A stretch of 64,000 nucleotides of DNA from Schmidtea polychroa (Eukaryota): NCBI GenBank assembly GCA_044892525.1, contig CM097885.1, positions 17,238,001-17,302,000 on the forward strand, in the 5' to 3' direction. The translations under genes were made by a program, and so were the position numbers. The notes beneath the pieces are model-generated. The model saw only the letters and a program-made list of their open reading frames with translations. It did no database searches and was not told the origin of the DNA. Numbering within the stretch: the first letter of the stretch is position 1; each line of letters opens with the position of its first letter. This document shows, in pieces, positions 7,321-61,429 of the stretch.

Positions 7321-9699
7321 TTTCAATGGAAATATAATGGCGACAAATTCGCGACGTCAATCAGCCGAGTAGGCCCTGAAAATTTTAATGAACATCAACT
7401 GCGATGAATCTTGTGACGAAAATTCCGATGCTGAAGAAATAGCGGTGTTTGATGATGCCTTTTCGTCTGCTTCTGATGTGGAAATGTCGAATGAATCATG
7501 CGACGATTTTTACTTCCCTTACCACTTGCTCAACGTATTGGAAACAAGCCATGCAGCTCTACTTCTGTGACACAACAAAAGTCAGATATGACTGATAGTG
7601 TAATCGGGAAAGATGGCATAGAATTGCGATCATTTAGTCAACTACGTTCTGTGCTACGTGTCAATGGGGGTCCAACTATTTATGTGATTCGCCGAGTGGA
7701 TGATTCACCATATAGCTCATTCAAGTTGTTTTTAACGAACTAATTCTTCGCCACATTCAAAAGTGTACAGAAGCAGAAGCTTGTCGACAAGGTGAAAATT
7801 ATTGGTTCGTTGCTTTGCCTGAAATGGAGACTTTCATAGATTTGTGCTATGCGAGAGAGGTGCCTAATTATGGTTTAAAGCAGTGCTACTCAAACATTTT
7901 TGTGTCGCGGACCGGTTATTTTATCCTAATCCAAAAACATAAATTTTAATTAGTAATAATATTTAATAAAGAAAGTAACAAATAAAAAACTTTTTAACAA
8001 ATACACTAATGTGATGGATATGCCTGTGTTGGGCTAGAACTGATTTTTAGACCCAAAATACTAATTGTGACTGAAATGTGTAGGTACACAGCAAGTAAAA
8101 AAGCACCAAGTATAGTTAAATAGTAAAAATACACCAAATAAACAATATTAATTAAAGGAGAAAACAACAAAAGCATAAACACAAAAATTAAATAAAATTA
8201 TACAAGAGCAAGAAGTTATGCAAAATCTAACTCAAAAATAACCGAATAAACATAGAGTTACAAAAAACAAACTCGAATAACTTAAAAGATGGTAAAAACA
8301 GTAAAAGATTCCAGAAAAACCCAGAACATTCCATAAAAATGGCGATGACCATCATAAAAGCTACCTTAAACAATAAAAGTTAGAAAAATAAATAAATTAG
8401 TAATAAAAATAAAAATTCTTAAAAAGAAATTCATAAAACATCAATTAAAATTAAAATTAAATTAAAAGTAATATAGAATGTTCTGGAACCGTTCCAAATC
8501 CATCATGGACGTAAAATTAATGAAAAATAATTAAAAATTTGAACTTTAGAAATAAAAACAAAAATTATGGCACAAAAATTGCCATTAAAAATATCAAAAT
8601 CGCGAAATAGAAAATTCTGGAATAAAAAGAATTCGAGTTTGTTTTAATGCATCAATACATACACGTGTACAAAATAGGTATATATACTGACACGTTTCAG
8701 TCACAAGGATCACTTTTTATGCCAATATTTTTTTGAACGAAAATTTTGTCCAGAAAACTAACAGTAAGTAGTTTTTCCTTTTTGATGTTCATCATTTTCA
8801 TCATTGATATTAGTATTTTTATGTTTTGATTCATTAATGTACATTATTTTAATGATTTTAATTGATTTTAATCCTCTACCTAACTTGTTTTTACCTTTTT
8901 GACTAATCAGCGACGTCTTAGTGCGTCGCTATTTAGTCCTGCATTTAATATTAATTTTTAACTAACAATTTCACAGGCAGACAGGCAATATCTTTTATAT
9001 ATTTTTTTTTGTGTTCGGTCATCGGAGGTCGGCCACTTCATGGTTCTACCATGGAGTTGTGTCGATAAAACCCCTCCGCTATGGCTCCATATATTTATTT
9101 ATCGGTCGACAGTGATGTTTCGACTCAACATTACAATAGGGCTTGTCGTAGCGGTCACAGTGGGGCCGTGTAAGCAAGCATTCTTCCCGAGTTCCAATGC
9201 AGTACACATTTAAAATCAAGATTAAAAATTTCACACACTACTTCACACTAGGATCATAATTGAGTAGATCTCAGACCCAAATTAAACACAGCAATTACAA
9301 TTCAGTTAATGTAGTCGGTTGGGACCTCCCCACTTAGGTGTTGGACGAACATCGTTAGTAAATAAAAATTTTTATCAATTAAAATTATAACTATAGATTA
9401 TTTATAAAAGGAAAAAATTTATAAATCACAAAATGGAGTTTGTATATAAAGTGTAAATTAAAAACATCCTATAACCGTGAATTCTAGATTATCTCATAAA
9501 ATATAATCCTATGCTAAGTTCGAACCCGGGCTTATATATATGAGCGGCTATGTATAGATTATATATGCACGATGATAATACAATATAGGCCTTAAACATA
9601 AGATACGACCTATAATTGGTAACTCTATCTCGATTATTAAGTGTAAATGATAAGTGGTTATCTTAATTATAAAAATACAATCTAAAAAGAATCATACAT

Positions 9700-10860
9700 A
9701 AAATTTTTATTACAGAAATATAATTTATAAATGGTGATATATAACTTTGAATTTAAAATATAAAGTATAAATACTTATGGGAAATTATTAAACTATAATC
9801 TATAAAGAATTATACCCAAAATTTTATAAGAATATAAGTTCTCAATAGTTTTATGCAAATCCGAGTTTGAAAATATAACATATAAATGGTTATATGTAAA
9901 TTACCAATGTATCTTGATTATACAATTCGATCTACAAATGATTGTGCAAAAAATTTTTTGGCCATGAAAATATAATTTCTAAATAGTTAGGTATGAATTT
10001 ATATTTAGGGATATGAATTATAGATAGTTACATATAATCCTATATATACTTGGACCTTAAAATTATAAACTATAAATAGTTAGGAAAAAATTTTTACTTA
10101 TGAATGTAAATTATAAATAATTATATAAAAATTTTGATTATAAAATATAAAGTATAAATAGTTATATATAAATTGTGTACGGATATGGATCATAAAAATA
10201 TAAACTATAAATGGTTAGGAGTAAATTTTACTTATAAAAATATAAATTATAATTAATTATATAAAATTTTTGATCATAAAATATAAAGTATAAATGGTCA
10301 TATATAAACAGTTATAAATAGTTATATATACATTATATACGGATATCGATCATAAAAATATACTCTATAAAATGTTACAAGTAAATTTTACTTATAAAAA
10401 TATAAATTATAAATAATTATGCGAAAATGTTTTGATTACAAAATATAAAGTATAAATAGTTATATATAAATAGTTATAAATCGTTATATATAAATTATAT
10501 ACAGTTATTGATCATGAAAATATAATCTATAAATAGTTACGAATAAACTTTTCTTATGAAAACATGAATTATAAATAATTATATAAAAATTTTGATTATA
10601 AAATATAAAGTATAAATGATTATATTTAAATTATAAACGTATATCGACCATAGAAATATAATCTGTAAATAGTTATGAATAGATTTTACGTACAAAATAT
10701 AAATTATAAATGATTATATATGAATTTTGATTGTAAATAGTTGATTATAAATTATATAGGTATATTGATGGTTACGATTTAATTTTACAAAAATATCAAC
10801 TATAAGGGATTTTATATAAACTTGGATTGTAACAATATAATTTATAATTGGTAATATATG
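9700..10860. repeat. Degenerate AT-rich tandem array inside the solo LTR
   Basis: Recurrent AAAATATAAAGTATAAATAGTTATATATAAATT-like units. Confidence 0.85.
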
Positions 10861-11666
10861 ATACTGCATTACAAAGTAGTCCCAACAATTATCAGCATAA
10901 AACTAGTTCTGTATCACAAAATTTAGCTTACCTTGACAGTTGAGAAATTGTATATCCAAGCATTCAGTGTACCAATGTAACAGTAGAATCCCAACTGAAA
11001 TACCCAGCCATGATCAGGCTAATAATCTCCTTTGGAAGGAAAACTACAGGGTGAACGTTACCGATGCAAACTCGGCACTGAATCTGCACGAAAATTGGGC
11101 ATAAATCCACGATTGTAATATCACCGTAGCATGGATATTGAACTGATCCGGAGATAAAACAAACAACCAAAAATTTATAATAAGATGGTCACCCTGAACA
11201 CGACAACCCCGTCTAAGTGAGGATGAGGTGGGAAACTAAGTTCCAACAGCTCACCCAGCACCGACGGAGCTGGTTGATTCAGAGGTCAAATTCAATTAAC
11301 CTAAAATAAAATCTTATGTCAATGACATAACAAACTTTAAAAATGAATCATAAAATATCAATAATTAGATTAAATAAACAAAGTGAGATTTATTAATGAT
11401 TTATTTTTTTTTAAAGTTGAATTGCTGAATTAACCCTGTCAAATAGGATTAGATCTTCTGAAATTAATTTTGGTATTATTTTTATTTAGCCATGGGTTTA
11501 GTGAGTTTTCGGCGGCACTGATCTAACAGCGGGAAAAGGAAAATTTTTTTTATTTGATAAATTACATAACGGATTAATAACCGAGATTTAAATTAATATA
11601 CGCTCCATTCAGCAAAAGCAATCATTCCCCTACAAAAATCTCTTTTAATTGGGTTTATTTGGTAGA

Positions 11667-12029
11667 ATGTCCCAATCAAGCAAATCCGACGAAGTCGAAT
11701 ACCGGCAGATGATAACACGGCTCCGGACCCGGTACATATGGTATCGGATACACGACTGGAACCGGGGGTTGGACCTCGATAATTATGGTCCGGTCATCCG
11801 AAGTGGCCCAGAACCCGATGCCCCGGCGTGGGTGAAAGTAGAGCCCACCAACAACGTGCTCCGGGAAGCCCGCGATCGAGCGGCCGATGAGGTGGTGGAG
11901 GCCCAAAAGCGGCTGAGGAGACTCGAGCTCCAACTCAAAGCCGAAACACTGGGGGTAACTCTTGAAGAGCTGGAGGAGACCGACACCTCTCCACGAAAAC
12001 GGGGAAGGCCCCGCAAGAACCTGGCCTAA
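11667..12029 (+). CDS. LTR-encoded ~120-aa protein with a coiled coil and C-terminal AT-hook/NLS
   Basis: GC-rich open frame from ATG 11667 ending SPRKRGRPRKNLA* (RGRP core). A diverged homolog lies at 14549-14944 on the minus strand. Confidence 0.65.
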   Translation: MSQSSKSDEVEYRQMITRLRTRYIWYRIHDWNRGLDLDNYGPVIRSGPEPDAPAWVKVEPTNNVLREARDRAADEVVEAQKRLRRLELQLKAETLGVTLEELEETDTSPRKRGRPRKNLA

Positions 12030-12341
12030 CTCATCGACAGTCGCGGCTTGAATGGAATGGTTTTGACTGATTTCATCCAGTGATATTTTACCTTGTAGTA
12101 GCATAACGAATTGTATTTTTCTTTTGTTCATTAAATCTTGACAATATAGTCTATCGTGTATCTTCGTAGTGCAATAAATTATTTTTTTTGCTATTACATT
12201 TTGGACTTTATAGCTAATGGGGTGTATTCATGATTGAGGTGACCCTTTTCTCATCACCCACTTATTAATTTCATGCACATACTCTAACCAACTTTGCGCA
12301 CCTGGATGCGAGCGATGGAATTTATTATTATTTTCCTTCAG

Positions 12342-12823
12342 TGTACCAGTTACTTGAAAATCAACGAAAGGACCGCGAACAGGCCCAGCAACAATCCGAG
12401 GGTCTCCGAGGTCGGGTCGAAAAACTCAAGCTGAAGTATCGAGAACTCCAAGGTACTTGGTTCAGTCCAGCCGAGATGAAGAAACGGACGACCCACATCT
12501 CGCAACTCCAGACCCAGGCGGAGCAAGACCAACTCGAGATTCGAGCGTTGAAGCTACAAGTACGCTCGCTCGAGAGCAAATTGAATGAAAAACTCATCCA
12601 GGACGCCCTCCAAGAGCAGATTCGGCCTCTTCAGGTGGAGTTAGCCAAAATATACCCACCAGCCCAGACAAGCAAGCCGAAACGTAAACGGCTCGGGCGG
12701 AATACCCGCGACAAATTGAAAAGGGCCTGGCTGGCCGAGCAGGAGAAGTTGAAAGAGACTGAAGCCAATCCACGACCCCGAGAGACGTTCGAGAGTGCGA
12801 CCCTCCTGGGTAAACAAACTTAG
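12342..12823 (+). CDS. LTR-encoded coiled-coil/basic protein, probably a spliced exon
   Basis: 160-codon GC-rich frame, Q/E/K/L heptad-rich with KPKRKR, preceded by the acceptor-like TTTTCCTTCAG at 12341. Confidence 0.55.
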
Positions 12824-14548
12824 TGGTGGTAGTAGTAGTTGTTTAACGAGTATGTGATTGAACTTTGCGGTTGTTTAAAACAAGAGGATGGGTAGAAAGG
12901 CGTTTGGGGAAAAACAATCTCGATGAGGGACCGAAACAAATCGGACACGTGCCTTCTATCGGCGTCCGTGAACCCATAGAGTGCTCGACAATTACAGTGC
13001 TTGACGCGCTCACTTTTTGCGAGTACTCAACCCCTTGGTACAGTACCAACGTTGATTGCTCAACGGGTACCAGGAGGAAAACAACGTTGTATTCTGGGTT
13101 ACGCTGGTAACAGCACTTAAATATTCAACCACCAGTAACCCACCACCTGTTTGTTTTTAATAAGTTTGTCAATCGGTGGTTCAATTGTGGATAATGCCAC
13201 GCGCAATGGTGCACGAATATTTTAACGCTTAAAAATAAAATAAAATTTACAAAAATGTTCTGAGAAACGGCACCGGTCCACGGACCACTACTTTGAGAAG
13301 TGTTGATCTAAAGAATTGGGTGCGTCCATTTTTTGTGATTCTATGTCAAGATATAGGTTAACAGCTATCGTAAAATTTTTACGATTTGATATGAAATCAG
13401 AGAGAGCTAGCCGATTACAAGAAGATCGATTTGCCTTAGCGTCTTCAATAGTGTTTCCATTTATTGAAAACTGCAAGAAAGCTTTTGTCCCAAACGAAAA
13501 TCTCACCATTTATCGTTCTATATGTCGGTATCGATTTATTCAGTACATTGCTTCAAAACCTGACAAGTTTGACATCAATTTTTTTTTACTTGATCTCCAG
13601 ACGAAGTTTGTCTGCAACAGATTTCCGTATTTGGGCAAAAATCATGGCAGACCAACCAACCAAGCGTTGCTTCATACGTTGTCCACACTTTATCACAAGG
13701 ATATGAACGAAATGGTAACAACGTCACTTGTGACAATTATTTTACATCACTGAATTTGGTCGAAGAATTACAATGTAAAGGTGTGAGTATGATCGGAACG
13801 ATTCGTAATAAGCGGCGTGAGTTGCCTGACGTGGAGTCGCTCATGAAGGGTCAAGCCTTGTTTGATTCCAGCTTCTTCATTTCTGAAAATAAAACTATTC
13901 TAACAGTCTATAAATGTAATGGGTTACAGGTAAGCATGCAATTTACCTTGTCGAGCTGTTTCCAGCGTAACGCAGAATACAATAGTGTCCTAGCGCTTGG
14001 CACCCATTGAGTGATCAATTTTGATACTGTAACAAGTGGGGGAGTACTCTCAAAAAGTGAGTTCCCTATTGGCACTATAATTGTCGCGCACTCCTTTGGG
14101 TCCGTAGACTGTTGATAGAAGACTCATGTCCGATTTCTCTTGGTCCCTCCGTTAAATATTTTTCCCAAATTCGTTTACGTTCGTCATACTTACAATATTT
14201 GTATGCCCAATCTGCCATTATTCCAGGGATTTGAGTATGATAAAAAATGTCAATATCGATTATTATGAGGGTGACGCTCTAAATAAATAAAAAAATGAAC
14301 CCAAAAAATCCATTAGCATGACAATAATAAGAGATTTTACATAAAATAAGAGTAATACAAAGTGTGTGGTCCAATAAAGGGAGGAGTGCATTGTCGGCAT
14401 AAGGTTAAGTCAATATTATAGACTGCAAGCTCACAAAATCACACATTACAAAAGTTATCAATTATACATCATGGACTGATCGACGGATACCGCATTCGAA
14501 GAGGCCTCTTGGTGTTAGGTCACATGATATCAGTCTCAGTCCCCGTTG

Positions 14549-14944: not shown

Positions 14945-16478
14945 TTCTATAAACGCGTCATTCAATAGAAGCAGTATTACATTCGCATTCACCCAGATTA
15001 CCACCGCAAACTCTTAATTATTCCAATCATCCCCTTTAGTTACTTGAAGTTCGGTTCCTTATACATGTATCGCACAAGTTCTAGTATCCAATTCTGCTTT
15101 TAAGCCAGCCACTCATAAAAGACAATTAAAATGACATAGCTTCCGACCTAGATGATCGGTCAAGCTGTCGACATGTATTTGGACCAATTTATATGCTTGA
15201 ACATCTACATTTGCCCCAGTTGTGACCGCTCAGAGAGGCAAAATCATCAATATTAGCGGAATTTCTCAACATCAAGTTTTTGAATGGTCGTCGGTAATTT
15301 CATTTAATTCATTCACAGTAACGATTTTCTTTTCTTTAGGGAATTTTCATTGGGAATTATACCCTTTTGGATTTAATAGTTTTCGGGTTAGTTTCTATTC
15401 TGAGTAAGAGTTTAGGTTTATCTAGCCGGGTACTACTGGTCATGTCAGTATTTGTCAAGATTTGCTTTCTTACGAATTTCCATTTCGACAATTTAGCTAC
15501 AATACAGTTGTTATCTAGCTTAGAGCTGTATTGTGCTGGGGAAGTTGTAGGTTCTGGGGTTAAGGGTCTGGATCCCATGGTTAGGCGCATGATTACTATT
15601 GCCTTTTATCCCTTGACAGTGTCAAGTTGACACTGGAATTTCTCAATAATTGTAAATGAAGCGACTGTAATTGATTGATTTTATCCGTGGGTGTGTGGAG
15701 TGGGACTTATAATTGTTTAAGTTTTCCTACTGATGGGTGATTTGGAGGTGGAGGTAATGCTAAAAATAGATCGCGCTTTTCCTGCTACCTCATTGGAGGG
15801 ATATATTATCGTTCCTAAAATTAGGTTTAGGGTAATCCTGTAGTCGACAGAGTTCATAATTTATAATACAATAATCCGTTAAATGTTACAATGATAACAA
15901 TACCGAAAATTAGACATGGTTAATAAAAAAATTTTAATGGCAATAATATTGAAAAATAACCATATTTAGTTAACTTTTATGATGATAGAAATATTGAAAG
16001 TACCGATATTTAGTAAATTTTATAATGATAATAATATTGAGACCAATAGTGATAATAATAATATCATCCACGATGTTACTTTAGGATTTCAATAACCGTA
16101 ATTATGTTAAGTTGACTAACTATAATGATGGTAATACTCACATTAGGAATAAGGATTATATGATAATATCATTATTACCAATTATAATTGTTAGAAGCTA
16201 TAACATTTAATTCTTCTGTCATCAAAATAAATTACTAAGACTATTAAATCCAAAATTATATTTCATTAAATCTGATTATATAAACAAATATTCTTGGGAC
16301 ATTTTCTAAATTTTAATTTCAACCAAATATCAACATACCATCGCATTCATACTTGAATTTCAATTTTATTAAAGATTTTTTTATTTTAAAATTTCAATTA
16401 TCATTTAAATTTTAATATCTTTAAATAATTTAAGTTTCAATTAAAATTTTACAAATTTTAATCATGAACTAATTTAAT

Positions 16479-19400
16479 TTAGTATTTTAATTTTAACTCC
16501 TCACATCCCCCTTTTTTAAAATGTTTGATCTTCTCAACATTTCTGACTACCATCTTCCCATTTTGATCTTTAAGTAAGTAGCTCCGTTCATGTATTTTCT
16601 TTATCACTTTGTACGGCCCTTCCCACCTTGCATCGTCTTTATTTCGAATTTCTTGTTTGATCAAAACCAAATCTTCCATTTCAAAATCTCTCACTGTTTT
16701 GCTTAATTTTGGTTTTAGTGTTTTATCCTCTATTCTCTTTTCCATATCTTCTCTATTTATTTCTTTATTCGAGTACCATTTCATTCTGTCGATTTTCCTC
16801 CCAAATATAATCTCTGCTGGGCTTACTCCCGTTGTTTTTTGAACTGTTGCATTTAAAGTATATTCTATTTCTGGCACTATATCAGCCCAGTTTTTCCTTC
16901 CTCCTTCATTCAATGACGCGTTAATATACTCTCTGATTGTTCTGAATTGTCTTTCAATAATACCATTCGTGTTATGGTGATATGGGCTTGAGAAAATTAA
17001 TTCAATGCCAGCTGCCTTTGCTAGTTCTTTTATACTTCTTGCTTCAAAGTTCTTCCCACAATCTACATGAAGTTCTTTTGGAGCTCCAAACTTTAATATC
17101 CATTTATTTAATAACGTCTCACTAATTGTTTTTTCGTCTTGCTTGTTTATGGCCGTTAATGAGATGTATTTACTACAGTGATCAATGATTCCGCAAATAT
17201 ATTTCTTTTTGTTGAACGTTTCTTTCAATGGCCCACATATATCCATATATATCTTCTCGAATGGTTCTGTACTCTTTATTGTTTGAGTTTCCTTCTTTGT
17301 CTTGGTTGTTATCGTTTTCATTTTCTGACATCTTTCGCAGTTCTCAATTACCTTTTTTACTTCCGTTGCTAAATTTTCCATGTCGCAGTTATTCTGGATA
17401 TATTTCGTTACTTTCTGTGCACCTGCATGGCACAGCAATACGTGTACTTCTTTTATCATCCTCTGTCTATTATCTGACGGTATCCATATTTTACCTTGCT
17501 TAGTTAGTACCGTGTTGTTTTCCATTATGAACTTACAATCTTTATTTTCTAACTTATTCTTTATTTCTTGGACCTCTATATTGTCATTTTGCCACTTGTT
17601 ATATCCGCCTTCTGCTGTTACTGTTAATATTCTGGTTTTAATTTTGCCGGTTTTTGGGTCTTCGTGTTCCATCATACACTGTACACATGTTCCGCAAGTT
17701 TTCCTGGATAGCATATCCGCGTTTGTATGGCTTGTTCCTTTCCTGTATTCCATTTTAATATCCAGGCTGCTTAAATAGTTGATCCATGTCTGGAATTGAG
17801 CAGTTATTGGTTTCTTCGTTGTTACCATAAACGTAATAGCTTAATGGTCCGTTCTCAGTACGAATCTCTTACCATATAAGTAATGGTTGAAATGTTTACA
17901 AAAATAGTATATTGCCAATAATTCTTTTCTGGTAATGCAGTATCCTTTTTCGTGGCTGCTCATCGCATGTGAACCATATGCAATGACATGTTCATGTCCT
18001 TTTTCATCCTTTTGCGAAAGAACTGCTCCAATAGTATCGAAGCTCGCGTCTGTGTCTAATATAAATTCTTTTCTGAAATCTGGAAATACCAATACTGGGG
18101 CGGTTATCAATGCTTCTTTCATTTCCCCGAAAGCCTTTTCACACATCTCTGTCCATCTTATTTTCTCATTGTTTTTTCCGCATATGCTTTCTAGTGCTCT
18201 TGCCTTCTTTGCATAGTCTTTTATGAACCGTCGATAATAGTTACAGATACCCAAAAAGCTCCTCAGATTCTTTACACATTTTGGCTTTTGAAATGATTGT
18301 ATTGCTTCTATCTTGGTATTATCTGTTTGTATGCCGTCTTTATTTATTATGTGTCCCAGAAACTTCAATTCTTTTCTAAATATTTGACATTTTTCGGGGT
18401 TCAATCTTAGTCCTGCTGTTGCGATCTTCCCTAGGACTTTTTCAAATATGTTATAATGGTCTTCTTCTGTCTTTGTGAATATATACCATCACTCCATCTT
18501 TCCACAAATCTTTCAATACTTTCGTCATTAATTCTTGAAATGTTCCTGGTGCCGCTGCAATACCGAACGGCATCCTGTTAAAACAGAACTGTCCTTCTTT
18601 TGTTGAGAATGCTGTTTTCTCTTGAGATTCTTTATCTAACTTCACTTGGTAATAAGCATTTCCCAAGTCGATTGAGCTAAAATATCTGGATCCGTGTAGG
18701 ATGTATAAAATTTCATCTACATTTGGCATTGGAAATGCTTGTCTTTCTGTTATCTTGTTTAATTGTCTGAAGTCTAGACAAAGCCTGATGTCTTTTTTCT
18801 CTTTCTTCCATACACAAACTAAAGGTGTGTTCCACGGTGAATTACACTTTCTAATTATTCCGTTGTTTTCTAGATTTTTTATTGCTTCCTCAATCTTGTC
18901 TTCCAAATTTATTGGCTGACGTCTCGGTTTAATCATTATTGGCTCTCCTTTCGTGATGATCTTATGTTTTATCAGATTGGTACACCCAATGTCCCATTTA
19001 TCTGCCATAAAAACATTCTTGTTTGCCTGAAATATTTCTAACAGTCTCTTATTTCCGGTAACCTTTAAAACGTCGATGGCATGACGTAATCTTTCTTCAT
19101 CTGTTATACTCCGCCCAAATCTAGCTTCTATTTCGCAAATGAAATCACTACGTTTTTCATGTTCTTCTAGTATACATTTCAATTCTATAACAAATAACCT
19201 TTGTAGTTCTACTCCTCCAATAATTTCTGGTATTAAATTCTTTACTATAATGAATGTTACATTTCTTTCAATACTGCCCATTTTAACATTGATGTTTATT
19301 TTACCCATAGTTTCTAATCTACTGTTGTTTGCACATCTTAGCGATTCCCTTGTTTCTAATATTTCGATATTTTCTAATCGATCAATTACAGATTTAGCCA

Positions 19401-19503
19401 TCACATTAATTCGCGCTCCTGTATCCAATAAACAATCTACTTTCCGCCCTTGGATATCCAGTGTTGTACTCGGTCTACCTTGCATTATATTATATGTTAT
19501 CAC
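16479..19503 (-). pseudogene. pol: Gypsy pol (protease, RT, RNase H, integrase) with a frameshifting deletion near 18480 and a stop at 17841
   Basis: LLDTGA protease; RLCLDFRQLN and FNRMPFG RT; TDAS..GAVL and RKELLAI RNase H; HHCC zinc finger, DDE and WEGPYKV integrase. Confidence 0.95.
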
Positions 19504-19807
19504 CGGACCTTTTTCTGCTCTCTAGTATCTTCTACAATTTCATTAATACACACGTCTCCATTTTTCTTGAGGAATTTGTAAATTTTCTCTATAGTTCTTT
19601 CCTCGTGTTTTACTAATTCATTTACTTTACACTCCTCTTTAAATTTTTTCTGAATTTCCTTATCATTCGACTTTTTGATTTCTACACTACTATTATTATT
19701 AATATCACGTTCAAAAACACTACAATCTTTATCAATCATACAATCATCATACATACTTAAATTACACATACCGTTAGCATTCATTCTTTGGTTGAAATCA
19801 ATATTAC

Positions 19808-20929
19808 TTAGTAAATTGCTCCGATAAATGTCCCGTTTGACGGAGCGTGCTCGTTTGGGTCATTCTCCCTGTTATACTCGTCTGGCTGGCTTGACTGTTT
19901 TGTATTCATCATCGCACCATCAGACTCGATAGCTGCAATATCTTTTCTCTTATATTGTTGGTTTCCCCATTGTCTTTGATGTACGTTCCTTGATTGATAC
20001 ATATCTTCCCTTTGTTGATAGGTATTTCTTTGAATTCTTCCTCCTGACATCTTCCTTTGGTCTCGATCTCTTCCTTGATTTCGTCTTTCCATATTTGTGT
20101 AGCACTCTCTTTCTTTGTGTCCTCGTGCATTGCATCTATGACATTTGATTGTTGGGCATTCTCTTCGTATGTGACCTTCAACACCACATGCATAACATTG
20201 AAATCTTCTTTTTATATTACATTCTCTGCTACTGTGTCCCGGTTTTTGACACGTCCAGCATTCTATCACTTTAATTCTTGTCTCTGGTTTCCATTCGTTG
20301 ATTTTTCTCTTCGTGGCTCCAACTTGTACTACATCTCTATAAGTTCTTCCCCCAGTTGTAGGTCGTATTGATCTCACCGTGTTTACTTGTTCAATAACCT
20401 TGTTAACTTTTTCTATCTTCTTTATAGTTTCTTTAATTTGTTCCGCCGTTTTGAGATCTTTCATTTCGATTTCTTTCCTGACTTCTTTATCTTTTACACA
20501 ATGTGTCAACAAACATTTCTGAATTTCTTCCTCATTCCAAGTGTGTGACGCCAATTTTTTAGTCATTTTTGATATTTTCTCTATAAATATTTCCGCTGAT
20601 TCGTTACCTTGCTCGTAGTTCATGGCTTCTCTTAAGTCATCAATCAATGACGTTGGTCGATGAAAAGCTGCTCTTAATTTCTGTTCCACGGTTTTACCTT
20701 CTGCGGTTTCATATTCTTCAATCAAAGTCCTGTCCAGAAGTGTAATAACTAGTACCATTTGGGTCTTCACTGGTGTCTTCGTTATTTCAAAGAACCTCTG
20801 ACATTCTTTGATAAATAATTCGAGGTCATCTCCTCTGTGGAATTTTTCTGGAAGTAATCTTCCAATAAGCAGATCCGTTGGAATGGTCGCCATGTTAGAA
20901 GCTATAACATTTAATTCTTCTGTCATCAA
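19808..20929 (-). CDS. gag: Gypsy Gag with three CCHC zinc knuckles
   Basis: CWTCQKPGHSSREC, CYACGVEGHIRREC, CHRCNARGHKEREC. Confidence 0.93.
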   Translation of the reverse strand: MMTEELNVIASNMATIPTDLLIGRLLPEKFHRGDDLELFIKECQRFFEITKTPVKTQMVLVITLLDRTLIEEYETAEGKTVEQKLRAAFHRPTSLIDDLREAMNYEQGNESAEIFIEKISKMTKKLASHTWNEEEIQKCLLTHCVKDKEVRKEIEMKDLKTAEQIKETIKKIEKVNKVIEQVNTVRSIRPTTGGRTYRDVVQVGATKRKINEWKPETRIKVIECWTCQKPGHSSRECNIKRRFQCYACGVEGHIRRECPTIKCHRCNARGHKERECYTNMERRNQGRDRDQRKMSGGRIQRNTYQQREDMYQSRNVHQRQWGNQQYKRKDIAAIESDGAMMNTKQSSQPDEYNRENDPNEHAPSNGTFIGAIY

Positions 20930-21365
20930 AATAAATTACTAAGACTATTAAATCCAAAATTATATTTCATTAAATCTGATTATATAAACAAATATTCTTG
21001 GGACATTTTCTAAATTTTAATTTCAACCAAATATCAACATACCATCGCATTCATACTTGAATTTCAATTTTATTAAAGATTTTTTTATTTTAAAATTTCA
21101 ATTATCATTTCAATTTTAATATCTTAAAATAATTTAAGTTTCAATTAAAATTTTACAAATTTTAATCATGAACTAATTTAATTTAGTATTTTAATTTTAA
21201 CTCCTCACAATAATAGTAATGATAGTTATCCCCCATAATAATAATAATACTAATGCAATAGTAACATTACCATTAATAATCATTAAAACTAACAAATATC
21301 TATTTAAAATAAAATCCGAATATTTAAACAAAATAACAATCTAATAATCGTCACTCTCCCCTTCT

Positions 21366-28282: not shown

Positions 28283-31229
28283 ATGGCGAATCGAAATTGG
28301 CGTTCTGGTAATTTTTTAAATCAACGATTTCCAAATTGATTTCTTTATTAGGAGGTAATTACCAATCGTTCAACCAACTTTTAAACCCTATGCCTTATTA
28401 CCCACCTATGAATTATTCGAATGAAAGAAAAAATTATGGTGGAAGAGTTGGGTATCGGGATGAAAATTATAAGTAAGTAATTTTTTAACTCAAAAATATT
28501 TGTTATTGTTCAAAAAATACGGTTTTAATTTGTGAACACGCAATTTGGAAGTAATTTGAATCGATATTTAGACGTGAAAGAAAAGACTTTCAAAGTGGTC
28601 GTCGAGACCGTATCAGTCCTAATAGACGAAGATCACCTTATCAAAGGTCACATGATTCTCACGGGGATTTTCGTAGAGATTCTAAGAAATCTCATGGGCG
28701 CTATGAAGTTAAAGCCCCTCGCTTAACTTTTGATATCAAAGAACTATCGACATCTTCCCTTAAGCTTCGTTATCCGAAAATGTATATACCATCTGACTTC
28801 TTTCACACTCATTTGAGATGGCAAGAAGTCTTTCCACTTTATCGAACAATGAAATTGGGTAATCATTCTGAGTTTCAGGTGAGGAAAACCGAATCAATCA
28901 ATTTTAGATTTTTTAGATCTATTAAATTTTGGAATGTATTCAATTTAATTATTTTAGATTCTTCACAAAGACGTGGAAGTTGATGGTTACCAAGAAGAAG
29001 TTCTGGAACCTTCTGATGTAAATTACACTCATTCGGCAAAAGTTATGCTAATGACCATGCCTAATTTGGTTGATTTATACAAAGCTACGTGTAATTTATC
29101 AGGCAATTCAACAAATACCAAATCTCTGAACAAAAATATCCAGTTTTTAGTTGGATCAAAAGGTAAAAATGAACCTTTGGCTATAGGAGGGCCATGGTCA
29201 CCAAGTTTGGATGGTCCAAATCCAGATGAGGATTCTTCGGTTTTAGTAAATACTGCAATTCGTAATTGTAAAGCTTTGACTGGAATTGACTTGTCTAAAT
29301 GCAAAAAATGGTAAAATATATTAATTAATTTGGTTAAATATAGTGAGTTTTTAAATTGGAATAAAAAATTAATCACTAATGATTAAGTATAAAATGAAGT
29401 TTTAAATCATTTATATTTAAGTTCACGAATTAATGATTATTTGATATTAATTACATGAGAAATTTTTATTAAAACTTTTTAAAATAAAAACTAATTTAAT
29501 AATTTAGGTATAAATTTCTCGAAATTCATTACTATCGACCTGCTGATCGCCAAGGAATCATGCAATCTGGAGATGGTGATAAAGAAGAATCGCATCAAGT
29601 TCAAAGTGAAACGGAAGCTAGAGTTGAAAAAGTGGTTATTTTTATTCCTGAAATTTGGTCATGTATGCCAAATGAAATTGAATGGGCAGAAATTAGAGCA
29701 ACTTTTGAAAAGAAGTTATCGAGCTTAATATCCACTGATGAACCAGAAGATGTAATTGAAGAAGTTAATGAAAGTAAGATAGTAGAAGAACCGAAGCCTG
29801 AAGAAGAAAAGGTTGTTGAAGAACTAGCAAGCGAGGAAAGTCAAAATTTATCTCAATTGAAAGTTGTGGAATTAAAAGCTGAATTGAGTTCAAGAGGTCT
29901 CGATACGAAAGGAGTAAAAAGCCAGCTAATAGAAAGATTACAAGAAGCACTTGATAAGGAAAAGGGCAAGACAGTCGAAGAGAGTATCAGTGAACCAGAA
30001 AAGGCTGAGGTGGTTGAGGAAGAAAAAGAAACCGTTACTGAACATGTTATACCTGTTGTCGAAGAGCCAAAAAAGACTGAAGAGTCGAAGGAATTATCAG
30101 AAAAGGAAAGGAAACGATTAGAAAAACTTTATAAGTTAAATGATAATCCATCGATTTTGGTTTTACCAAATAAAACTGCAAAAGCCGGAAAATTTGAATG
30201 CAATATATTGACACTAGAAAATTTAATGGAATATAGACTTGATGATCAAAAAGAACACATATTTGAGGTATCTTTATTTGCTGAACAATTTAACGAAATG
30301 CTGCAGAGAGATGCTGCTTTTTATATCTATAAAAGCTTGTCTGAGTTACCCGACTCTACCACTGATTCCACAGAACCTTCTTCGAAAAAGCCAAAGTTAG
30401 AAACTGAAAAGGTGATTAGAAAATCCAAAATGATCGCTGATATGCATATGTTATTTTCTTTCTGCGTATTCGATTTCGATAATTGCGGTTATCTGAGGGA
30501 TCACGATTTAGAAGATATCATTCATTGCATCGGATTAAATTTTTCGAGGTCTCAAGTTAGAAAATTAATATCCAAGATTCCAAATAAAAGGGGAAATTTG
30601 CAATATCGTGAAATAACTGACAAAGAAGTAATTGAAGGAAGTGAAGATGATGTAGCAGTTTTAAAAGAGAGAAAATGTGTCATAGATAAACTTGTTGAAT
30701 TATCAAAAGGCAATAAAGCATTTTTCGAAGAATGCGATACCCAGGAAACGATTTCCAGAGAGGGCAATTTAGAGCTTATGGATAAATTATGCGCTGTCGA
30801 AAACAAGAAAATGGATTACGAATCACAATTTGTGTTGATCAAGGATGAATTAAGTATGATAAATTATCGATTTTTTATTGTTAATCCATTTTAATTATAG
30901 CAAAAATAAAATCCATTCAAAATGATGCCGGCGTTGTTGAAACTAATTTAAAAGAAAGTATTCGCAAAGTCCAAGAGAAATTGGAAGCAGAAAAAGAATC
31001 CCATTTGAAATTATCCGATGTTATAAAAGTCTACAATTCCATCCTGAAATCTGCAACAGACAATATGGGACTTTCAATAAAAACTATCAATGATCAGTTC
31101 GAGAAGGAAAGGTTATTAATTGAAGAAGCTAAAGCTAAAGAAGAGGCAGAGAAAAAGATGGATGTAGAAGAAGTTAAAGAACCGGAAGTAAATGAAGATA
31201 AAAGTTGGCAAGTCGTTGACCAAGTTTAA
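28283..31229 (+). CDS. CCAR1: CCAR1/DBC1-family protein; exons 28283-28307, 28352-28472, 28572-28878, 28958-29310, 29508-30853, 30901-31229
   Basis: In-phase GT-AG splicing. RYPKMYIPSDFF; DBC1 domain FLVGSKGKNEPLAIGGPWSPSLDGPNP..TAIRNCKALTGIDLSKC.KWYKFLEIHYYRP; SAP domain LKVVELKAELSSRGLDTKGVKSQLIERL; FEVSLFAEQFNEMLQRD; EF-hand-like FDFDNCGYL; AATAAA near 31354. Confidence 0.92.
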
Positions 31230-45607: not shown

Positions 45608-48600
45608 TAGGGTGGGTCGAATGTTAATAAATTGTGAGTTCAAGAAAGGAAACATGGTTAAAAAGTTGTATTTTGGTATAGAAAAATCGAATCAAACCAT
45701 TTTACTTAGATTTATGGACATTTACTGCTCCCAACTTTTCTCCGAAAATGCAGTTCAACATAAGTGTGAAAACAATGTAATTTGGCTAGTGTCGGAATGT
45801 GTTTTGCGCCTTTGTCCATATTTAGATGTAGCTTTCTTAAGAGCTTATAAGTATATTATTTACTCTCTTGGGCTGAGATAGTATATTCTGTGTCCTCATC
45901 CCGCATTGAAATATATCCTGACAACGTCAGTGATTAGGAAGGGCCAAATTTGAATTATCCTTTTCAAAGACAAAAATCAACTTTCGAAATTATTTTTTAT
46001 TAAAAACATCCAGCCAAAAGTTTAGAAATGTATTAGCGAGGGCATAAAAAGAAGTCACATGAAATCAGCTTTGCTTTGCACCTTGGGCAATTCCTTCCTT
46101 GAATTTTTACACAGTAGTACCATACCATGTCTGGACTTGTGACCAAACACTTTGCAACTGGCAGAAGAAACATCTTTGATGGCTCTTTCAACGGCTTGAG
46201 AATAACAGGGAAATTGTTCTAATGTAATTTTCTTATTCATCTTCAATTCATGATCCAATATATGAGATAAATGAGGGGGAGGCGTCAAATTACATTTTGT
46301 CCAGTCAATCATGTCAACATATGATGTAGCAGACGACTGAAGAAAGACAGTATTCTTGTCCATAGTGCGAATCACTTCGGAAGGGAGAAAATTTTGTCTT
46401 GCAGTTATGATTTTTTCTGTTGCAAACTTTCTGATTTCTTCATCATCATCACCAACAGCAGCTAGGAGTATATTTTCTGGATGTGAGAAGTAATTGTTGT
46501 TCTGAATGACAGGAAAGATGATTTCTTGGTCTGATGGATCCAAATCCTGCAGAAGTTGGAGCATATAAAAAATATTTCTTGCACCATCTTGGCATGACGA
46601 GTGAGTCTTTATATAAAACCATGACGGTCCATAGAAATTGACAATAAATTTCACTATTCGCATGAGAGGTTCAGATGGAGCAGTTTCGGACATATATAGT
46701 CGCAGAATTCTATTAGCTTTCGTTAGTCAGCGACTGTGATTCAAATTTCCTGGTTGTGCCATTTGTAGAAAAGGGACATCCTTGTTGTTGTGGTACCCTT
46801 TCTGGACTGCCAATCATACTCTGAGGAAATACAATTCATCAGTGTTCAATTCTTTCTTGACATTTTCACTAATATCTACGACCTTTCCAGGAAGGGACAT
46901 AAAGGCTACTACGGGCTTGTCTTTTGGATCAAAATCAAGAACGCTTCCTATTTCACCACATGACGTTTTTGGACCTTTTGTTTCTCCACCATCGACGACT
47001 GAAAAATAGTTCCTGAATGGCAATTCATTTGCATGCAACAAGCATATCAGCCATTGTAGAGGTCGCCCTAGGCTTTTTTCGAGTCTTCTGATTATTCCAT
47101 TATTTTTTCCGGTGTTTGTATTGGTTCCATCGCACACAATTGCTTGTAGGGTCAGTGAGGACTGCGTGCTAACGATGATTGACATGATTTCTTTGCCAAT
47201 ATCCACAGCTTTACTACTTTGAGGTACAACATGATCGATATATGTATCCCCTGGAAAGGCGACAATCACATAATGCTCCTCTTTTAGGATCCTTCTATGA
47301 AGTAAGGTGGAATCTTGTTTCCCGTCAAAACCGAGGCAAATCAAGTTTTTCGCTTCTGCTGAATGCTGTTCAATTTCTCTCTCCCTCCAGTACTTTCTCT
47401 GACGCCGTAATTTTGCGGGATCGATGATTGTTTGAGAGGATAACAGTTCCATATCTTTCAGAAAAGCGTTTACTAGCAAACACGTGTCTCTGTTGCTCAC
47501 ACCACATCTGTCAACAGCTTTACTTAATTCAGGATAATGTCTTCTATTTTGAAATTCATCACATTCTTCTACGCTTGACTCTGAGCTTTCTGTTGAATTG
47601 TCTAACTTATCTTTACTTTCATCACTAGCGGCTTCACTCTCCGTGTCACTTCTTGAGGTCGGATGTAGATCGTTAACTTCAGTGTCCATTATTTCATTTT
47701 TCATTTGTTTTCCTTTTCCTGTAGGGCTGCTTTTCGTTTGTTTTCTCTTCAATTTTGAGGTTTCCTGTCTGTCCGTATTTCCGATTTTCATGTTTCTGGT
47801 AGTTTGTTGGTCAATCCAGAACTCCCACTCTAAGGTAGGAATTTTCAAGGCCAATCGGCATGTACACTGACTTCTTCCACGAGCACCATCATTAAAACAT
47901 TTGCAGCAACATATGTCAAACAATTTGGAAAACGAGCTTAACTTATCTTGAAATTTGGCAGATGACCTCTTGCATTCTGGATACTTCTCTAATTCACGCA
48001 CTTTTGATATTAGTCGCTTGACACGAACCACAATACTACTGAACTCAACAGTTGGGATACTTGCCTTCATATAAATTTCCTTCACCTTATTTGCGAGAAG
48101 AGTTGCTTGTTCGTTAAAGCCAGTATGAAATTGCGTACATTTCTCATTGTAACAGTAATCACGAAACACATCTTCACAAGTAGGTAATTGGTTTCTGGGT
48201 AGTTCACAAGTTTGACCAAACAGACAATGACGTGATTTACTTCTTGTTTTGCGAAATTGTTTATTTCTCTGTCCCTTCATAACTGCTCTTCTGTACTCAG
48301 CTCTGGCAAAATAAAAGTGAATCATCAAGTTAACTTTTTTAATTAGGTCCAGCAAACACTTGACATCCAATCGAAACAAATTAAATTATCTGAGTTTAGA
48401 CTGACTAGTAGTATCCATGTGGATTATGTGTTGACTGTAGTGTGTGTTAGTATTGTTCAGAAGAAATTGTCTTTGTGAGTGCTTGTGTGAAGGTGCTTCC
48501 GTGAATTAACCTCTCTATACATGCACGCGTTAGCTTGGACTTGTGAATAGAGCATGTCAAAAATGGTCTTTCTGCAAGCGTGTGACTGCTTGCAGGATGA

Positions 48601-48776
48601 ATTTACAATGGCACGTGTGCGAGCATTTTTACTGGGATAGTACTAATACATACAAACAAAAGTTGGGACCTGTAAACCCTTTTAAACAGCAGTCTTTTGC
48701 AGGGATATTTCATTTTCTAGCATAAGCACAACTTTTTAGGCATGTTTGGAGAAAAAAAAATTTTCGACCCACCCTA
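45608..48776 (-). mobile_element. hATx/hATm-group transposon inserted in the left TIR of Polinton A; transposase about 48280-46055 with two in-frame TGA stops
   Basis: TIR TAGGGTGGGTCGAA at both ends; 8-bp TSD ATGGCCAT; FDGKQD, CDGTNTNTG, CLLHANEL, FPCYSQAVER. Confidence 0.93.
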
Positions 48777-49183
48777 ATGGCCATACCCTTGAAGGTGTAT
48801 GGTGGGTCCTCAACCTTCAAAGGGTAAAAAACCTTCGAATTTTTTCAAACTTTATATTATATATATATATATATAATTTTTTGTCTTAATTATCGAATCT
48901 CTGATTATGTAATAATAATAATATGTTTTGCTTTAATTATCGAATTCGTAATAATTTAATTTTGTTTAAATTGTTAATTATATAATAATATTTTTATTTT
49001 TTGTCTTAATTATCGAATGCGTAATAATTTAATTTTGTTTAAATCGTTGATTATATAATATTTTGTTTTGTTTTAATTATCAATTACATAATAATTTAAT
49101 TTATCATTATTATTGGGAAAGATATTAACGCCCGCGTGGAAGACGTTATTTTCAAATTATTATTGTTATTTTCAAGGTTTTAA

Positions 49184-49288
<105 letters not shown>

Positions 49289-49614
49289 CTCCTAGTCTAT
49301 CCGACAAAATAATTTGTCCCCTTATGGGTACTGCTCACACTCAACAGGTTGCAAGGGTACTAGTCATGCTTATTATTATTGTTATGATGTTACTTAGACA
49401 TTTGAAGGTTCAACCATGGTTACAATTTCTACATTTTGAAAACGCTAATTTGATTGGCTATCTCAATTTTTATAAATGTAAAAACAAAAGTAATTTAGTT
49501 ATTAAGAAATTTATTTATTACTGATAATTTCTACAAGTATGAATATGAATGTGTAAATCACAAAACACATTTGGTAACTTTATTATTTTGTCAATATATA
49601 CATGCCATTTATAG

Positions 49615-50169
49615 CAAGGAAATCCTACTAGAAATAAGGAAAAATTAAGTCCAACCTATTCCGAAGATAAGTGTTCATTGAAATTTTTTAACAACACAGT
49701 TGAAGATTTTATAAATAATCATGATACTTACAGTGATAAGCAAATCATAAATATTTTAAAAATTTTCAAACATTCCTCTATTGAATATTTGATTGATTTA
49801 TTTAATTATGATAAATGCATTTTGAAGTTATCTAGTTATTTAATGTATTTAGAAAAAACAGTGGTAAACAATGATTCACTGAATGAATACTTTTGGAGAT
49901 GTATGTATTTAAGGTTGAAACCGGGATATAGTAGATTGATTTATGAATGGGTAGCAAAAGTCTATTTGATTGAAAATAAGCTAACGGAAAAACTGAACGA
50001 TGTTAAGAAAAGGTATTTAACTTGTTCAATTTGCAAAGAAAATCAAGTTTCGGTTTTGTATTTACCGTGTGGTCACGTAATTGTTTGTTCTAAGTGTCAC
50101 GAGAAGAATGTTCACAATTGTCAAGCCTGTTCAACACTGATTAATGAATATCATACTATATACATGTAA
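49615..50169 (+). CDS. IAP-type C3HC4 RING-finger protein (last exon; upstream exons likely at about 49380-49573)
   Basis: CSICKENQVSVLYLPCGHVIVCSKCHEKNVHNCQAC...IYM* at the extreme C-terminus; the frame is open from the acceptor TTTATAG at 49614. Confidence 0.8.
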   Translation, partial: QGNPTRNKEKLSPTYSEDKCSLKFFNNTVEDFINNHDTYSDKQIINILKIFKHSSIEYLIDLFNYDKCILKLSSYLMYLEKTVVNNDSLNEYFWRCMYLRLKPGYSRLIYEWVAKVYLIENKLTEKLNDVKKRYLTCSICKENQVSVLYLPCGHVIVCSKCHEKNVHNCQACSTLINEYHTIYM

Positions 50170-55051: not shown

Positions 55052-56273
55052 TCAATTATTATCTTCGTCCGGATCATTAACCTCAGCATTGTTACTATTA
55101 CCCATAACCCTGTTAACTATTTTATAATGACCATAGGCTAAACTTTCATTTTTATTTACCCAATGCCTCTTATCATCATTATTTGTTAGGGCTAAATTTA
55201 TATTTTTTATTGTAAATAACTGATGATTTTTACTTACTATTCGAGATTGTGGTACTGAAATCATTGAATTATTATGATAAAAATCAAGGTACGATTGATG
55301 TTTTAATTCGGTACCCTTCAATGTTATTCCCTTAGCCTTGTTGCTCTCTTTATCACCCAAAAGGCTATAGCATTTAGGCCTTAAGAACACCCATTCCTTA
55401 TATCTACTCCCTTTATTTTCATCTTTGAATTTACCAATGACGGAATCAAAAGCTCTTGAATATAATTCATGAGATGAATCATAATTCGATGTATCCAGCA
55501 TGTTATCTCGTAAAAGCACATCTAATTTGCATCCTTTAACCTCTAAAAATAAGGAATCAGTGTCACCTGCAATAATATTGATTTCGCAGCTAAAATCATC
55601 TCGATATTCGAACTTTCGATCTATGTATGATGTCAACATAATGATGTTTTAATACTTCAGAATTATTTAAAATATCCACTAAAGCATCCTCATCGTATGC
55701 AAGAACATTAATCGAAAGCCCCGGATTTTTATCTTCAAATTTAGTTATATTACAGAAACGCATCGGTAAGTCAGAAGGATCAAAGACTAGATCAGACCGA
55801 TTATAATTACTTATTCGATTTCTATGATTACTATCAACGTCATCGTATTTCAAAATAGCTAAAATGCTATAGATGAAACACAAATCATCCGTATTGTTGA
55901 TATTTATTACGCAATGTTTATTTAATAATGATTTAGGAGTTGGAAGAGAACCCCTCCCACTCAATCTATTTATTTGAGAAAATTTTGTAATAACAAAATG
56001 TATTTCTTTTATTTTATTAATAATCCAATTACTTCCATTTTTATTAATTAAAGTAATTTTCTCATTAAGAATAGCAATACCTTCATCTAAAAAGGTATCA
56101 CTCATGGGTCTTGCAGAATTTGAAATAACGAAAGATTGAAATTCTCCGTCTTTTTCAAATTCCCCTTCGATACAAAATTGAATCTTTACAGAACCCATTT
56201 CTCTGGTAACATTATTAAATTTATTAATTAAGGGCGTGGGTACGGTTAAAGAATTTAAATTTTCAACCATCAA
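55052..56273 (-). pseudogene. Protein-primed DNA polymerase B with a large internal deletion
   Basis: N-terminal VININNTDDLCFIYSILA..KFEDKNPGLSINV joined almost directly to GDTDSLF, LDTSNY, GKFKDE, LRPKCYS, KAKGI, DDKR; exonuclease motifs and polymerase motifs A and B are absent. Confidence 0.9.
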
Positions 56274-56438
56274 AATGATTTGTTAAACAGAATCTAATTG
56301 ATCAACTCGATTTTTAAAATTAATATATATACTGAGTGCATAAAATTATTATATTTAATGATGCAACAATATAAAAGTAATTTTATTATCATTATCTAGT
56401 ATTGCTTAATCATTATTCTAGAAACTTCAGTGAAAAAG

Positions 56439-56895
56439 ATGGAGAAACAAGTAAATTCAGATATAATCAAGTTAATTCTTGAGGAAAATTCAACATCGAT
56501 TGATAATCTTATTAGAAAATCTCCTGTTCAGTTCCTACAATATTCTATGGAATATTTAAAATATCCAATAACTTAATCATTTAAAGTAAATATATTTATA
56601 TAGTTTAATTAAATTTTTATTAGGAACCTGTAACTTTGAAACAGAGTTTATATAATATACAAGTAGGTAAAATTGGAGATATCGATAGAAAAAATATTTT
56701 AGGATTATTGTTGGCTATCAATAAAAATATTCAATTCAATGAAAACTTTACATGTATGAATTGTGATAAAGATTATGCTTTAGAAAATTTTAAAAATGAA
56801 AATGAAAATGATAAAAATTCAAATTCAGAGTTTTAAAGATGGAAAAGAAACAATCAGACCTATATGGAAAATAATTGATACTAATATATTATAAT
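56439..56895 (+). pseudogene. Polinton accessory gene of unknown function, spliced and frameshifted
   Basis: ATG 56439 MEKQVNSDIIKLILEE..., intron-like GTAAAT..TATTAG (~56586-56623), then EPVTLKQSLYNIQ..CMNC. Confidence 0.4.
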
Positions 56896-56899
56896 TCTT

Positions 56900-57120
56900 T
56901 ATTTGTTTCTGTTTCACATAAACTGCGAGCCAATGCTCTCTCTTGAGATTACAAGATTGAGTATTTACAATTAAAGCCTTGTTTACATCAATATATGGTA
57001 TTTTATCTAATGGAAAAACTCCAAGAAAAACTCCGAACAATTTTCGACCTATGTATTCAATCTGAATAGAACTTATTATCAATAAATTAAAGTAATTAAA
57101 AATAAAATTCTTACTTCATT
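56900..57120 (-). pseudogene. Adenain-like cysteine protease, truncated
   Basis: FLGVFPLDKIP..LIVNTQSCNLKREHWLAVY (catalytic His motif); the Cys-containing half is missing. Confidence 0.85.
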
Positions 57121-57129
57121 TTTAATAAT

Positions 57130-59701: not shown

Positions 59702-59706
59702 AATAT

Positions 59707-60823: not shown

Positions 60824-60914
60824 TATTACAACATGATGTTAATATATTTAAATCTAAATTATGTTTATCCGGTAATGAATCCTTAGCAGCAATTATTTCT
60901 ATGATATTATATTT

Positions 60915-61240: not shown

Positions 61241-61270
61241 GCCAATGATGTATTTTATTAATTAATTTGT

Positions 61271-61408: not shown

Positions 61409-61429
61409 TTTTAAATAATAATAATAATG

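Follow-up and report, generated by a model that had tools for sequence, protein, structure and literature searches.

A solo long terminal repeat of a giant Burro-type Gypsy element in Schmidtea polychroa carries two genes, predicted to be leader-spliced, that may regulate the element's own transcripts

We analyzed a stretch of 64,000 nucleotides from the genome of the planarian Schmidtea polychroa (assembly GCA_044892525.1, contig CM097885.1, positions 17,238,001 to 17,302,000 of the forward strand), hereafter referred to as the window, with positions counted from its first letter. Positions 8027 to 13145 are a solo long terminal repeat (LTR) of a giant Gypsy retrotransposon of the Burro type, and within this LTR lie two open reading frames (ORFs), ORF1 and ORF2, that are almost certainly real protein genes. 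On balance, we lean toward the reading that both are spliced from a common leader and likely encode nuclear regulators of the element's own transcripts. LTR-borne genes are rare, and the textbook cases, sag of mouse mammary tumor virus (MMTV) and nef of human immunodeficiency virus, lie in U3 and are expressed from the 3′ LTR by splicing. The element family itself is already known; as far as the literature searched reaches, the genes in its LTR, the conserved promoter-like block, the donor preceded by A, the predicted splice-made start codon of one gene and the probable placement of both genes in the R/U5 part of the LTR appear to be the new part.

Results

The window contains a solo LTR of a young giant Gypsy family

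The insertion begins with TG at 8027, ends with CA at 13145, is 5119 bp long and is flanked by a 4-bp target site duplication (TSD), CCTG (Table 1). In uninterrupted copies of the target repeat, the flanks are joined without the insert in five of five cases, and in two of them the junction carries this CCTG once. Neither a primer-binding site (PBS) nor internal element sequence is attached to the window LTR, and its sequence agrees with the terminal repeats at either end of a full element. The insertion is a solo LTR, as an earlier note on this window had proposed from its ends, its duplication and its lack of gag or pol, and the empty sites now found agree with that proposal. The same note had described a clean restoration of an interrupted hAT frame, which did not hold up: we rejected a hAT transposase frame as the target, since the interrupted sequence is a non-coding miniature inverted-repeat transposable element (MITE) of ~300 bp that has terminal inverted repeats as well as an 8-bp duplication. 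This MITE, which we take to be of hAT type, itself sits within a decayed piggyBac-type transposase (PF13843) whose frames contain stops and shifts.

A search of the same genome with the last 1.5 kb of the LTR returned 3,207 candidates; the 40 that were scored showed 91-100% identity, and many of these were paired ~30.5 kb apart. One full element (G000:C2:145315023-145350908) is 35.9 kb long, with an internal region of 25.5 kb and the TSD CATG, and carries both ORFs in both of its LTRs. Its interior contains a 4,486-codon frame with CCHC, MATH, fusion glycoprotein, protease (PR), reverse transcriptase (RT), RNase H (RH), integrase (IN) and ankyrin regions, as well as cargo ORFs with RING, TRAF and BIR-RING domains, the last having PF00653 and RING in one ORF. 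Pfam reported no BCL2-like or dUTPase-like motifs in this element at E<=0.01, a search that differs from that of PMC6431247, in which HHpred was used for several motifs. Burro1/GYPSM1 elements of Schmidtea mediterranea are giant Gypsy-like LTR elements of >30 kb with an internal region of ~25 kb (PMC6431247). Our full element resembles them in both lengths, in its BIR cargo and in having one polyprotein with CCHC, MATH, an in-frame fusion glycoprotein, PR, RT, RH, IN and ankyrin. The window LTR belongs to a Gypsy family of Burro1/GYPSM1 architecture, which bears out the earlier note's suggestion of a Burro-type giant element. The family may be Burro1 itself or a sister, the polyprotein frame having 4,486 codons here versus the 4,873 aa reported for Burro1, with which it was compared by description (PMC6431247).

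Of the LTRs fetched, 49 had both ends: 22 were solo LTRs with an exact 4-bp TSD, 14 were 5′ LTRs, 11 were 3′ LTRs, and two had an imperfect TSD. Since eight LTR pairs differ by only 4-17 nt per ~5 kb and the closest sister of the window copy is 1.1% different over the ORF segment, we consider the family young. An older family was reached through a decayed relative of ORF1 on the minus strand of the window (39% over 69 aa). In 12 loci of this older family, the ORF1 profile matched 12 and the ORF2 profile six, in the same order and near an LTR-type end. ORF identity to the older family is ~45-57%, and one intact-looking ORF1 reaches 56% over 97 aa. A candidate full element of the older family, the LTR pair L086/L087, was rejected because the pair encloses no matching internal region.

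Both ORFs are conserved as protein-coding genes

The two ORFs occur in both LTRs of full elements, which disposes of the possibility, raised in the earlier note, that they belong to a nested insertion or an internal remnant. ORF1 had 2,772 candidate places in the genome at first look, of which 150 were scored. Among 58 loci examined, ORF1 was intact in 52 and ORF2 in 50, although these shares are inflated by the choice of the loci for ORF similarity. The pairwise ratio of nonsynonymous to synonymous substitution rates (dN/dS) was 0.18 for ORF1 (219 pairs at dS>0.6, 40 unique sequences) and 0.11 for ORF2 (206 pairs at dS>0.6, 36 unique sequences). Near-identical copies gave 0.45-0.50, as expected from decay after insertion. 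Third codon positions were favored by the shared variants, which fell on first, second and third positions in numbers of 27/30/78 for ORF1 and 24/14/70 for ORF2. Synonymous and nonsynonymous changes numbered 182:60 and 258:97 in the real frames of the two ORFs, and the ratio was reversed in shifted frames (35:217, 44:216, 71:311 and 57:322); the antisense mirror frame was the only control frame that echoed the real-frame ratio. Judged from these sequence comparisons, ORF1 and ORF2 are under purifying selection, and the earlier note's view of them as LTR-borne genes is upheld.

ORF2 was modeled as long helices with a predicted local distance difference test (pLDDT) score of 84, in keeping with the coiled coil of ~160 codons behind a splice acceptor that the earlier note had recognized. 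The ORF1 model, a weak one (pLDDT 68, predicted template modeling score 0.29), has two helices, including one at residues 62-95, and a disordered basic tail. No homologue of either ORF was found outside its own genome in the databases searched, and Foldseek returned no match for either model at E<=0.001, so that neither homology nor fold assigns a function; both results speak against our functional reading. In the ESM Atlas, ORF1 had no match and ORF2 had generic coiled-coil matches only.

A third gene at 10860-11300 was rejected as a conserved gene, since its frames differ between subtypes. Positions 11190-11290 form a 100-bp block that is ~95% conserved between the window subtype and two divergent subtypes otherwise ~20% different, and that is absent from 37 of the 58 loci.

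Promoter, splice and polyadenylation signals are predicted around both genes

Upstream of the ORFs, the near-invariant block at 8609-8706 showed a mean mismatch of 1.5% among 17 LTRs, compared to 25-35% just downstream, and it is retained in two older-family LTRs, one of which has TATAAATA. A donor-like GT follows ~60 nt downstream of this block. By a strict pattern, A|GT was found at this place in 44 of 48 LTRs; the other four were mis-anchored and have A|GT on inspection, while one further LTR has lost the region by deletion. On the acceptor side, an AG precedes the ORF1 start by 1-2 nt in 51 of the 52 intact copies, with unrelated sequence upstream; of all ATGs in these LTRs, 20% are preceded in this way. 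The beginning of ORF2 contains no ATG and reads AG|TGTAC in all 50 intact copies and AG|TG in five of six older-family loci. Because the predicted leader ends in A and ORF2 always starts AG|TG, the joining of A and TG would create the ORF2 start codon. In 51 of 52 copies an AATAAA follows ORF1 at a distance of no more than 220 nt, and in 48 of 50 one follows ORF2, the window copy being one of the two that have none there, having lost it by a short deletion. Among the internal accessory ORFs of one full element, seven of eight have an AG 0-3 nt before the first ATG. Taken together, these sequence patterns make leader splicing as drawn here, from 8763 to 11666 or 12342, a probable prediction. 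In addition, the blocks at 9012-9196 and 12915-13145 both fold better than shuffled sequences (Table 1) and are candidate response or packaging elements.

Several results weigh against this scheme. AATAAA is common in AT-rich DNA; two exact patterns for processed, leader-joined copies had 0 matches in the genome; and no GT..AG joint appeared in contigs of four sequencing runs on 10870-13300 or of three runs on a sister LTR. The hairpin at 9012-9196 showed no clear covariation among 33 sequences. Run coverage points neither way, with three runs covering introns and flank like DNA, and the one presumed-RNA run with coverage having no cover in intron-like bins but covering U3 too. Long-range pairing between the conserved blocks was uninformative, and Rfam gave one chance-level match only. 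At the end of the predicted intron, no copy of exon 1 was seen in this family.

Ancestry of LTR segments suggests a position of both genes downstream of the promoter

LTR bases 1-580 exist as a few haplotypes that track both internal flanks: the rank correlation of pairwise distances is 0.90 with the 3′ internal region (10 LTRs) and 0.93 with the 5′ internal region (13 LTRs), whereas the leader and ORF segments correlate with each other at 0.80 (45 LTRs) and with the internal flanks at only 0.07-0.57, all of these values being drawn from few independent lineages and given without a P-value. Ancestry switched at LTR positions 577 to ~706 in four of six triplets scanned, three of the four sharing the same U3 contrast and hence not being independent, and the reciprocal mosaics include the window copy. 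A second switch downstream is variable in position, ~250-550 nt before the LTR end. Such mosaics would arise if minus-strand synthesis changed templates, proceeded to the 5′ end of the RNA and jumped at R. We infer from this sequence pattern that U3 is ~0.6 kb long and that both genes lie in a ~4.4-kb R/U5 segment that is exchanged on its own, apart from U3 and the internal region. That both genes are downstream of the LTR promoter is, in our estimate, highly probable. A gene encoded in U3 in the manner of sag or nef is improbable from the same comparisons, an indirect test in which the ORF segment tracks the 3′ internal region weakly instead of being co-inherited with it. Apart from the small number of lineages, three points count against the placement in R/U5: the triplet L056 also switches inside U3, gene conversion at the DNA level could contribute to the mosaic pattern, and the AATAAA at 8621 is upstream of the TATA-like box, so that R is placed only approximately.

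The AT-hook-like tail of ORF1 is constant while the AT-rich array is not

The ORF1 tail PRKRGRPRK is identical or nearly so in 51 of the 52 intact copies, and eroded forms of it are present in the older decayed family. It shares the R-G-R-P core and basic flanks of AT-hook proteins (PF02178); here, however, the motif is single and scores 10.9-12.8 bits, below the Pfam gathering cut-off of 17.4. The AT hook announced in the earlier note thus stands as far as core and flanks are concerned and falls short in number and score. An AT-hook-like motif could equally serve as a nuclear localization signal (NLS). The AT-rich tandem array noticed at the same time is indeed inside the LTR. This middle part of the LTR is a variable module, in which other subtypes have unrelated arrays or only microsatellites and simple repeats; the 14 subtypes checked have in common only a generic AT-rich stretch of 13-21% GC at this place, the whole window having ~30% GC. 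A fit between the ORF1 protein and the array that shares its LTR was not borne out, as the array is swapped between subtypes while the motif stays constant, and this lack of array conservation weakens the case for binding.

Table 1. Features of the solo LTR and its insertion site (window coordinates)
Feature	Position	Strand	Basis or description
Solo LTR of Burro-type Gypsy element	8027..13145	+	93% identity, full length, to both LTRs of the 35.9-kb element
TSD CCTG, left	8023..8026	+	sequence; uninterrupted target copies
TSD CCTG, right	13146..13149	+	sequence; uninterrupted target copies
MITE, left part (context)	7881..8026	.	comparison with other copies
MITE, right part (context)	13150..13305	.	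comparison with other copies
Putative U3	8027..8608	+	ancestry tracks internal region, not rest of LTR
Near-invariant block, putative promoter and R boundary	8609..8706	+	AATAAA 8621-8626; TATA-like 8679-8686; initiator (Inr)-like TCAGTC 8697-8702
Predicted leader exon	8699..8763 (start uncertain, 8699-8712)	+	ends in A before donor GT 8764-8765
Conserved non-coding block inside predicted intron	9012..9196	+	long hairpin predicted; 4.5% mean mismatch; fold z -2.9
AT-rich degenerate tandem array, subtype-specific	~9635..10860	+	84% AT; period 136-160
Predicted ORF1 splice acceptor AG	11664..11665	+	one base before ATG
ORF1, 120 aa, ending SPRKRGRPRKNLA	11667..12029	+	two predicted helices and C-terminal AT-hook-like basic motif 11994-12017
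AATAAA after ORF1, predicted poly(A) signal	12173..12178	+	aligned position
Predicted ORF2 splice acceptor AG, then TG TAC	12340..12341	+	conserved in intact copies
ORF2 exon, 159 codons after predicted splice-joint start codon	12342..12823	+	long predicted helices; basic motif KPKRKRLGRNTRDKLKR at 12674-12724
LTR end, conserved, non-coding	12915..13145	+	adjoins PBS in full elements; fold z -2.9

Other features of the window and of related copies

A decayed 3′ part of an older related LTR lies on the minus strand at 13916-~15000, inside the same piggyBac-like pseudogene; it has a broken ORF1 relative (39% identity) with an AG just before the ATG, and no recognizable ORF2. A further diverged LTR of the superfamily is represented at 7003-~7330 by its truncated start, the first 14 bases of which are those found at 8027. 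In one fetched locus (L065:2111-2400), an LTR runs straight into a second, divergent one, of which the middle and 3′ part are present, in tandem or nested. In another (L011:6214-6240), a PBS-like motif, presumably matching tRNA-Pro, stands 8 nt after the 5′ LTR, and a 14-base part of it occurs 3,309 times in the genome as against 0 for a control. In the same locus, the RING ORF and gag are separated by a long untranslated leader (L011:7400-9900) with direct repeats of ~100-170 bp.

Elsewhere in the window, a small Gypsy element occupies 16189-21209 on the minus strand, with 317-bp LTRs that are 99% identical and with gag, PR, RT, RH and IN, all frameshifted. Integrase, A32-like ATPase and chromo-like fragments at 55052-62042 (minus strand) and 46055-50169 suggest a decayed Polinton/Maverick, and a RING ORF lies at 49615-50169. 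A host-type exon at 29503-30894 encodes DBC1, SAP, LAIKA and EF-hand domains and is presumably CCAR1-like.

Discussion

A proposed mechanism and its alternatives

In the mechanism that we propose, transcription would start near 8699-8712, and the leader ending in A at 8763 would be spliced either to 11666, yielding the ORF1 message, or to 12342, where A and TG would form the ORF2 start codon. Each short message would end at its own AATAAA, and the same leader would serve the internal accessory ORFs. Full-length RNA from ~8700, by contrast, would have to retain the ~2.9-kb intron and read through both of the poly(A) signals that its 5′ LTR contains. Because genomic RNA would keep the intron and pass the poly(A) signals that the short messages use, a switch would be needed; and because the two kinds of RNA would need opposite processing, the two proteins most likely regulate the output of their own element, a self-regulatory function to which we give somewhat better than even credence. 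ORF2, with its coiled coil and arginine/lysine-rich motif, would be the likeliest Rev/Rex-like switch: its arginine-rich motif KPKRKRLGRNTR(D/E)KLKR is kept across subtypes and has a similar form in the older family. ORF2 showed no sequence or fold homology to known export factors in the databases searched. ORF1, with its helices and AT-hook-like or NLS-like tail, would be the likeliest chromatin-binding activator. Template switching during reverse transcription would swap the ~4.4-kb segment between copies, so that solo LTRs could express and donate the genes. The fuller proposition, in which the 4.4-kb R/U5 segment is a self-contained two-gene unit, complete with promoter, leader, splice-made start codon, a poly(A) site for each gene, a chromatin-binding activator and a Rev-like switch, that solo LTRs express in trans and feed back into active elements as cassettes by template switching, is tentative, and we hold it to be doubtful.

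The same genes and splicing could serve proteins that act outside element transcription, with ORF1 tethering integration to AT-rich chromatin or the pair being directed at the host, a possibility that we consider unlikely but worth weighing. Tethering of integrase through AT hooks by a host factor has precedent. The element also carries several host-directed cargo genes (BIR, RING and TRAF; PMC6431247), and the inhibitor of apoptosis (IAP) of Burro1 is credited with a host-protective role in the available part of a citing paper (PMC13465017). However, neither ORF1 nor ORF2 resembles a host domain, and genes situated in the leader segment, each with a poly(A) signal of its own, would be expressed first from the promoter, as would befit a regulatory role. 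It is less likely still that ORF1 is an AT-hook protein that binds and acts through the AT-rich array of its own LTR. The near-constant RGRP core would suit such binding, as would the AT-rich stretch at this place in 14 of 14 subtypes checked, and the predicted helix 62-95 could multimerize a single hook. Yet there is only one hook, below the Pfam cut-off and equally readable as an NLS, whereas the array, replaced or reduced to microsatellites between subtypes beside an unchanged motif, would lie downstream of the putative start and inside the predicted intron, in a genome whose background is AT-rich as well.

A long U3 containing both ORFs, with splicing from internal donors and expression confined to the 3′ LTR, would leave solo LTRs silent for them; we regard this reading as very improbable. 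U3 is the usual place of LTR-borne genes, and our start site is a prediction from sequence. Sag is also listed as a singly spliced MMTV product in the available part of PMC12789967. Against this, co-segregation with the internal region is confined to bases 1-580 and does not extend to the ORF segment, and a promoter-like block and a donor stand upstream of the ORFs. Reading the ORFs as frames that arose by chance, as a nested insertion or as captured sequence in decay is scarcely credible: they are known here from genomic DNA only and have no outside homologues in the databases searched, but dN/dS of 0.11-0.18 at high dS, the frame controls, the presence in both LTRs and the retention in the older family all argue for the reading as genes, barring an artefact of alignment behind the selection signal.

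Comparison with known systems

Genes lie inside the LTR here, whereas the text of PMC6431247, figures aside, names none there for Burro1. We found no description of genes in Burro LTRs in the literature searched, whose reach excluded the original Burro description, a 2026 Burro1 study, figures and Repbase. Such genes are not mentioned in the available parts of PMC8532177, PMC13465017 and PMC11410931, nor are planarians in the available main text of PMC13524379. The start codon of Drosophila gypsy env is assembled at a splice joint, AT|G (PMC2585583, available part), and a splice-made start codon is predicted here as well; unlike AT|G in gypsy, which serves an internal env gene, A|TG is predicted for a non-env gene of the LTR. 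According to the available part of PMC11952523, elements of the MDG1 group (412, mdg1) have two small accessory ORFs, sORF1 and sORF2, downstream of the promoter and upstream of gag, which a poly(A) site separates from each other. ORF1 and ORF2 are likewise small, accessory and separated by a predicted poly(A) site, but the MDG1 ORFs are outside the LTR and unspliced, and sORF2 is a membrane fusogen, whereas ours are in the LTR, behind predicted acceptors, and look soluble and basic. Deltaretroviruses have a poly(A) signal in U3 (PMC12789967, available part). As in the deltaretroviral Rex/RexRE and MMTV Sag/Rem systems, to the extent that these are covered there, a poly(A) hexamer is found in U3, here upstream of a TATA-like box. 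A need for export of unspliced RNA and small spliced regulatory genes, both predicted here, would be further shared traits; in contrast to those systems, the genes here would lie in R/U5, and no relation in sequence or fold was found.

Implications

If two selected, spliced genes do reside in R/U5, minus-strand strong-stop DNA would be ~4.4 kb long, and the genomic RNA would have to escape both splicing of an intron and polyadenylation within its 5′ LTR. A Gypsy element would then have control of the complex-retrovirus type, and solo LTRs could be protein-coding units. Planarian RNA interference or mapping targeted at the internal genes of Burro would miss these LTR transcripts. Should the two-gene unit in addition prove self-contained, the many solo LTRs, far from being debris, would serve the element as a gene pool and a regulatory network.

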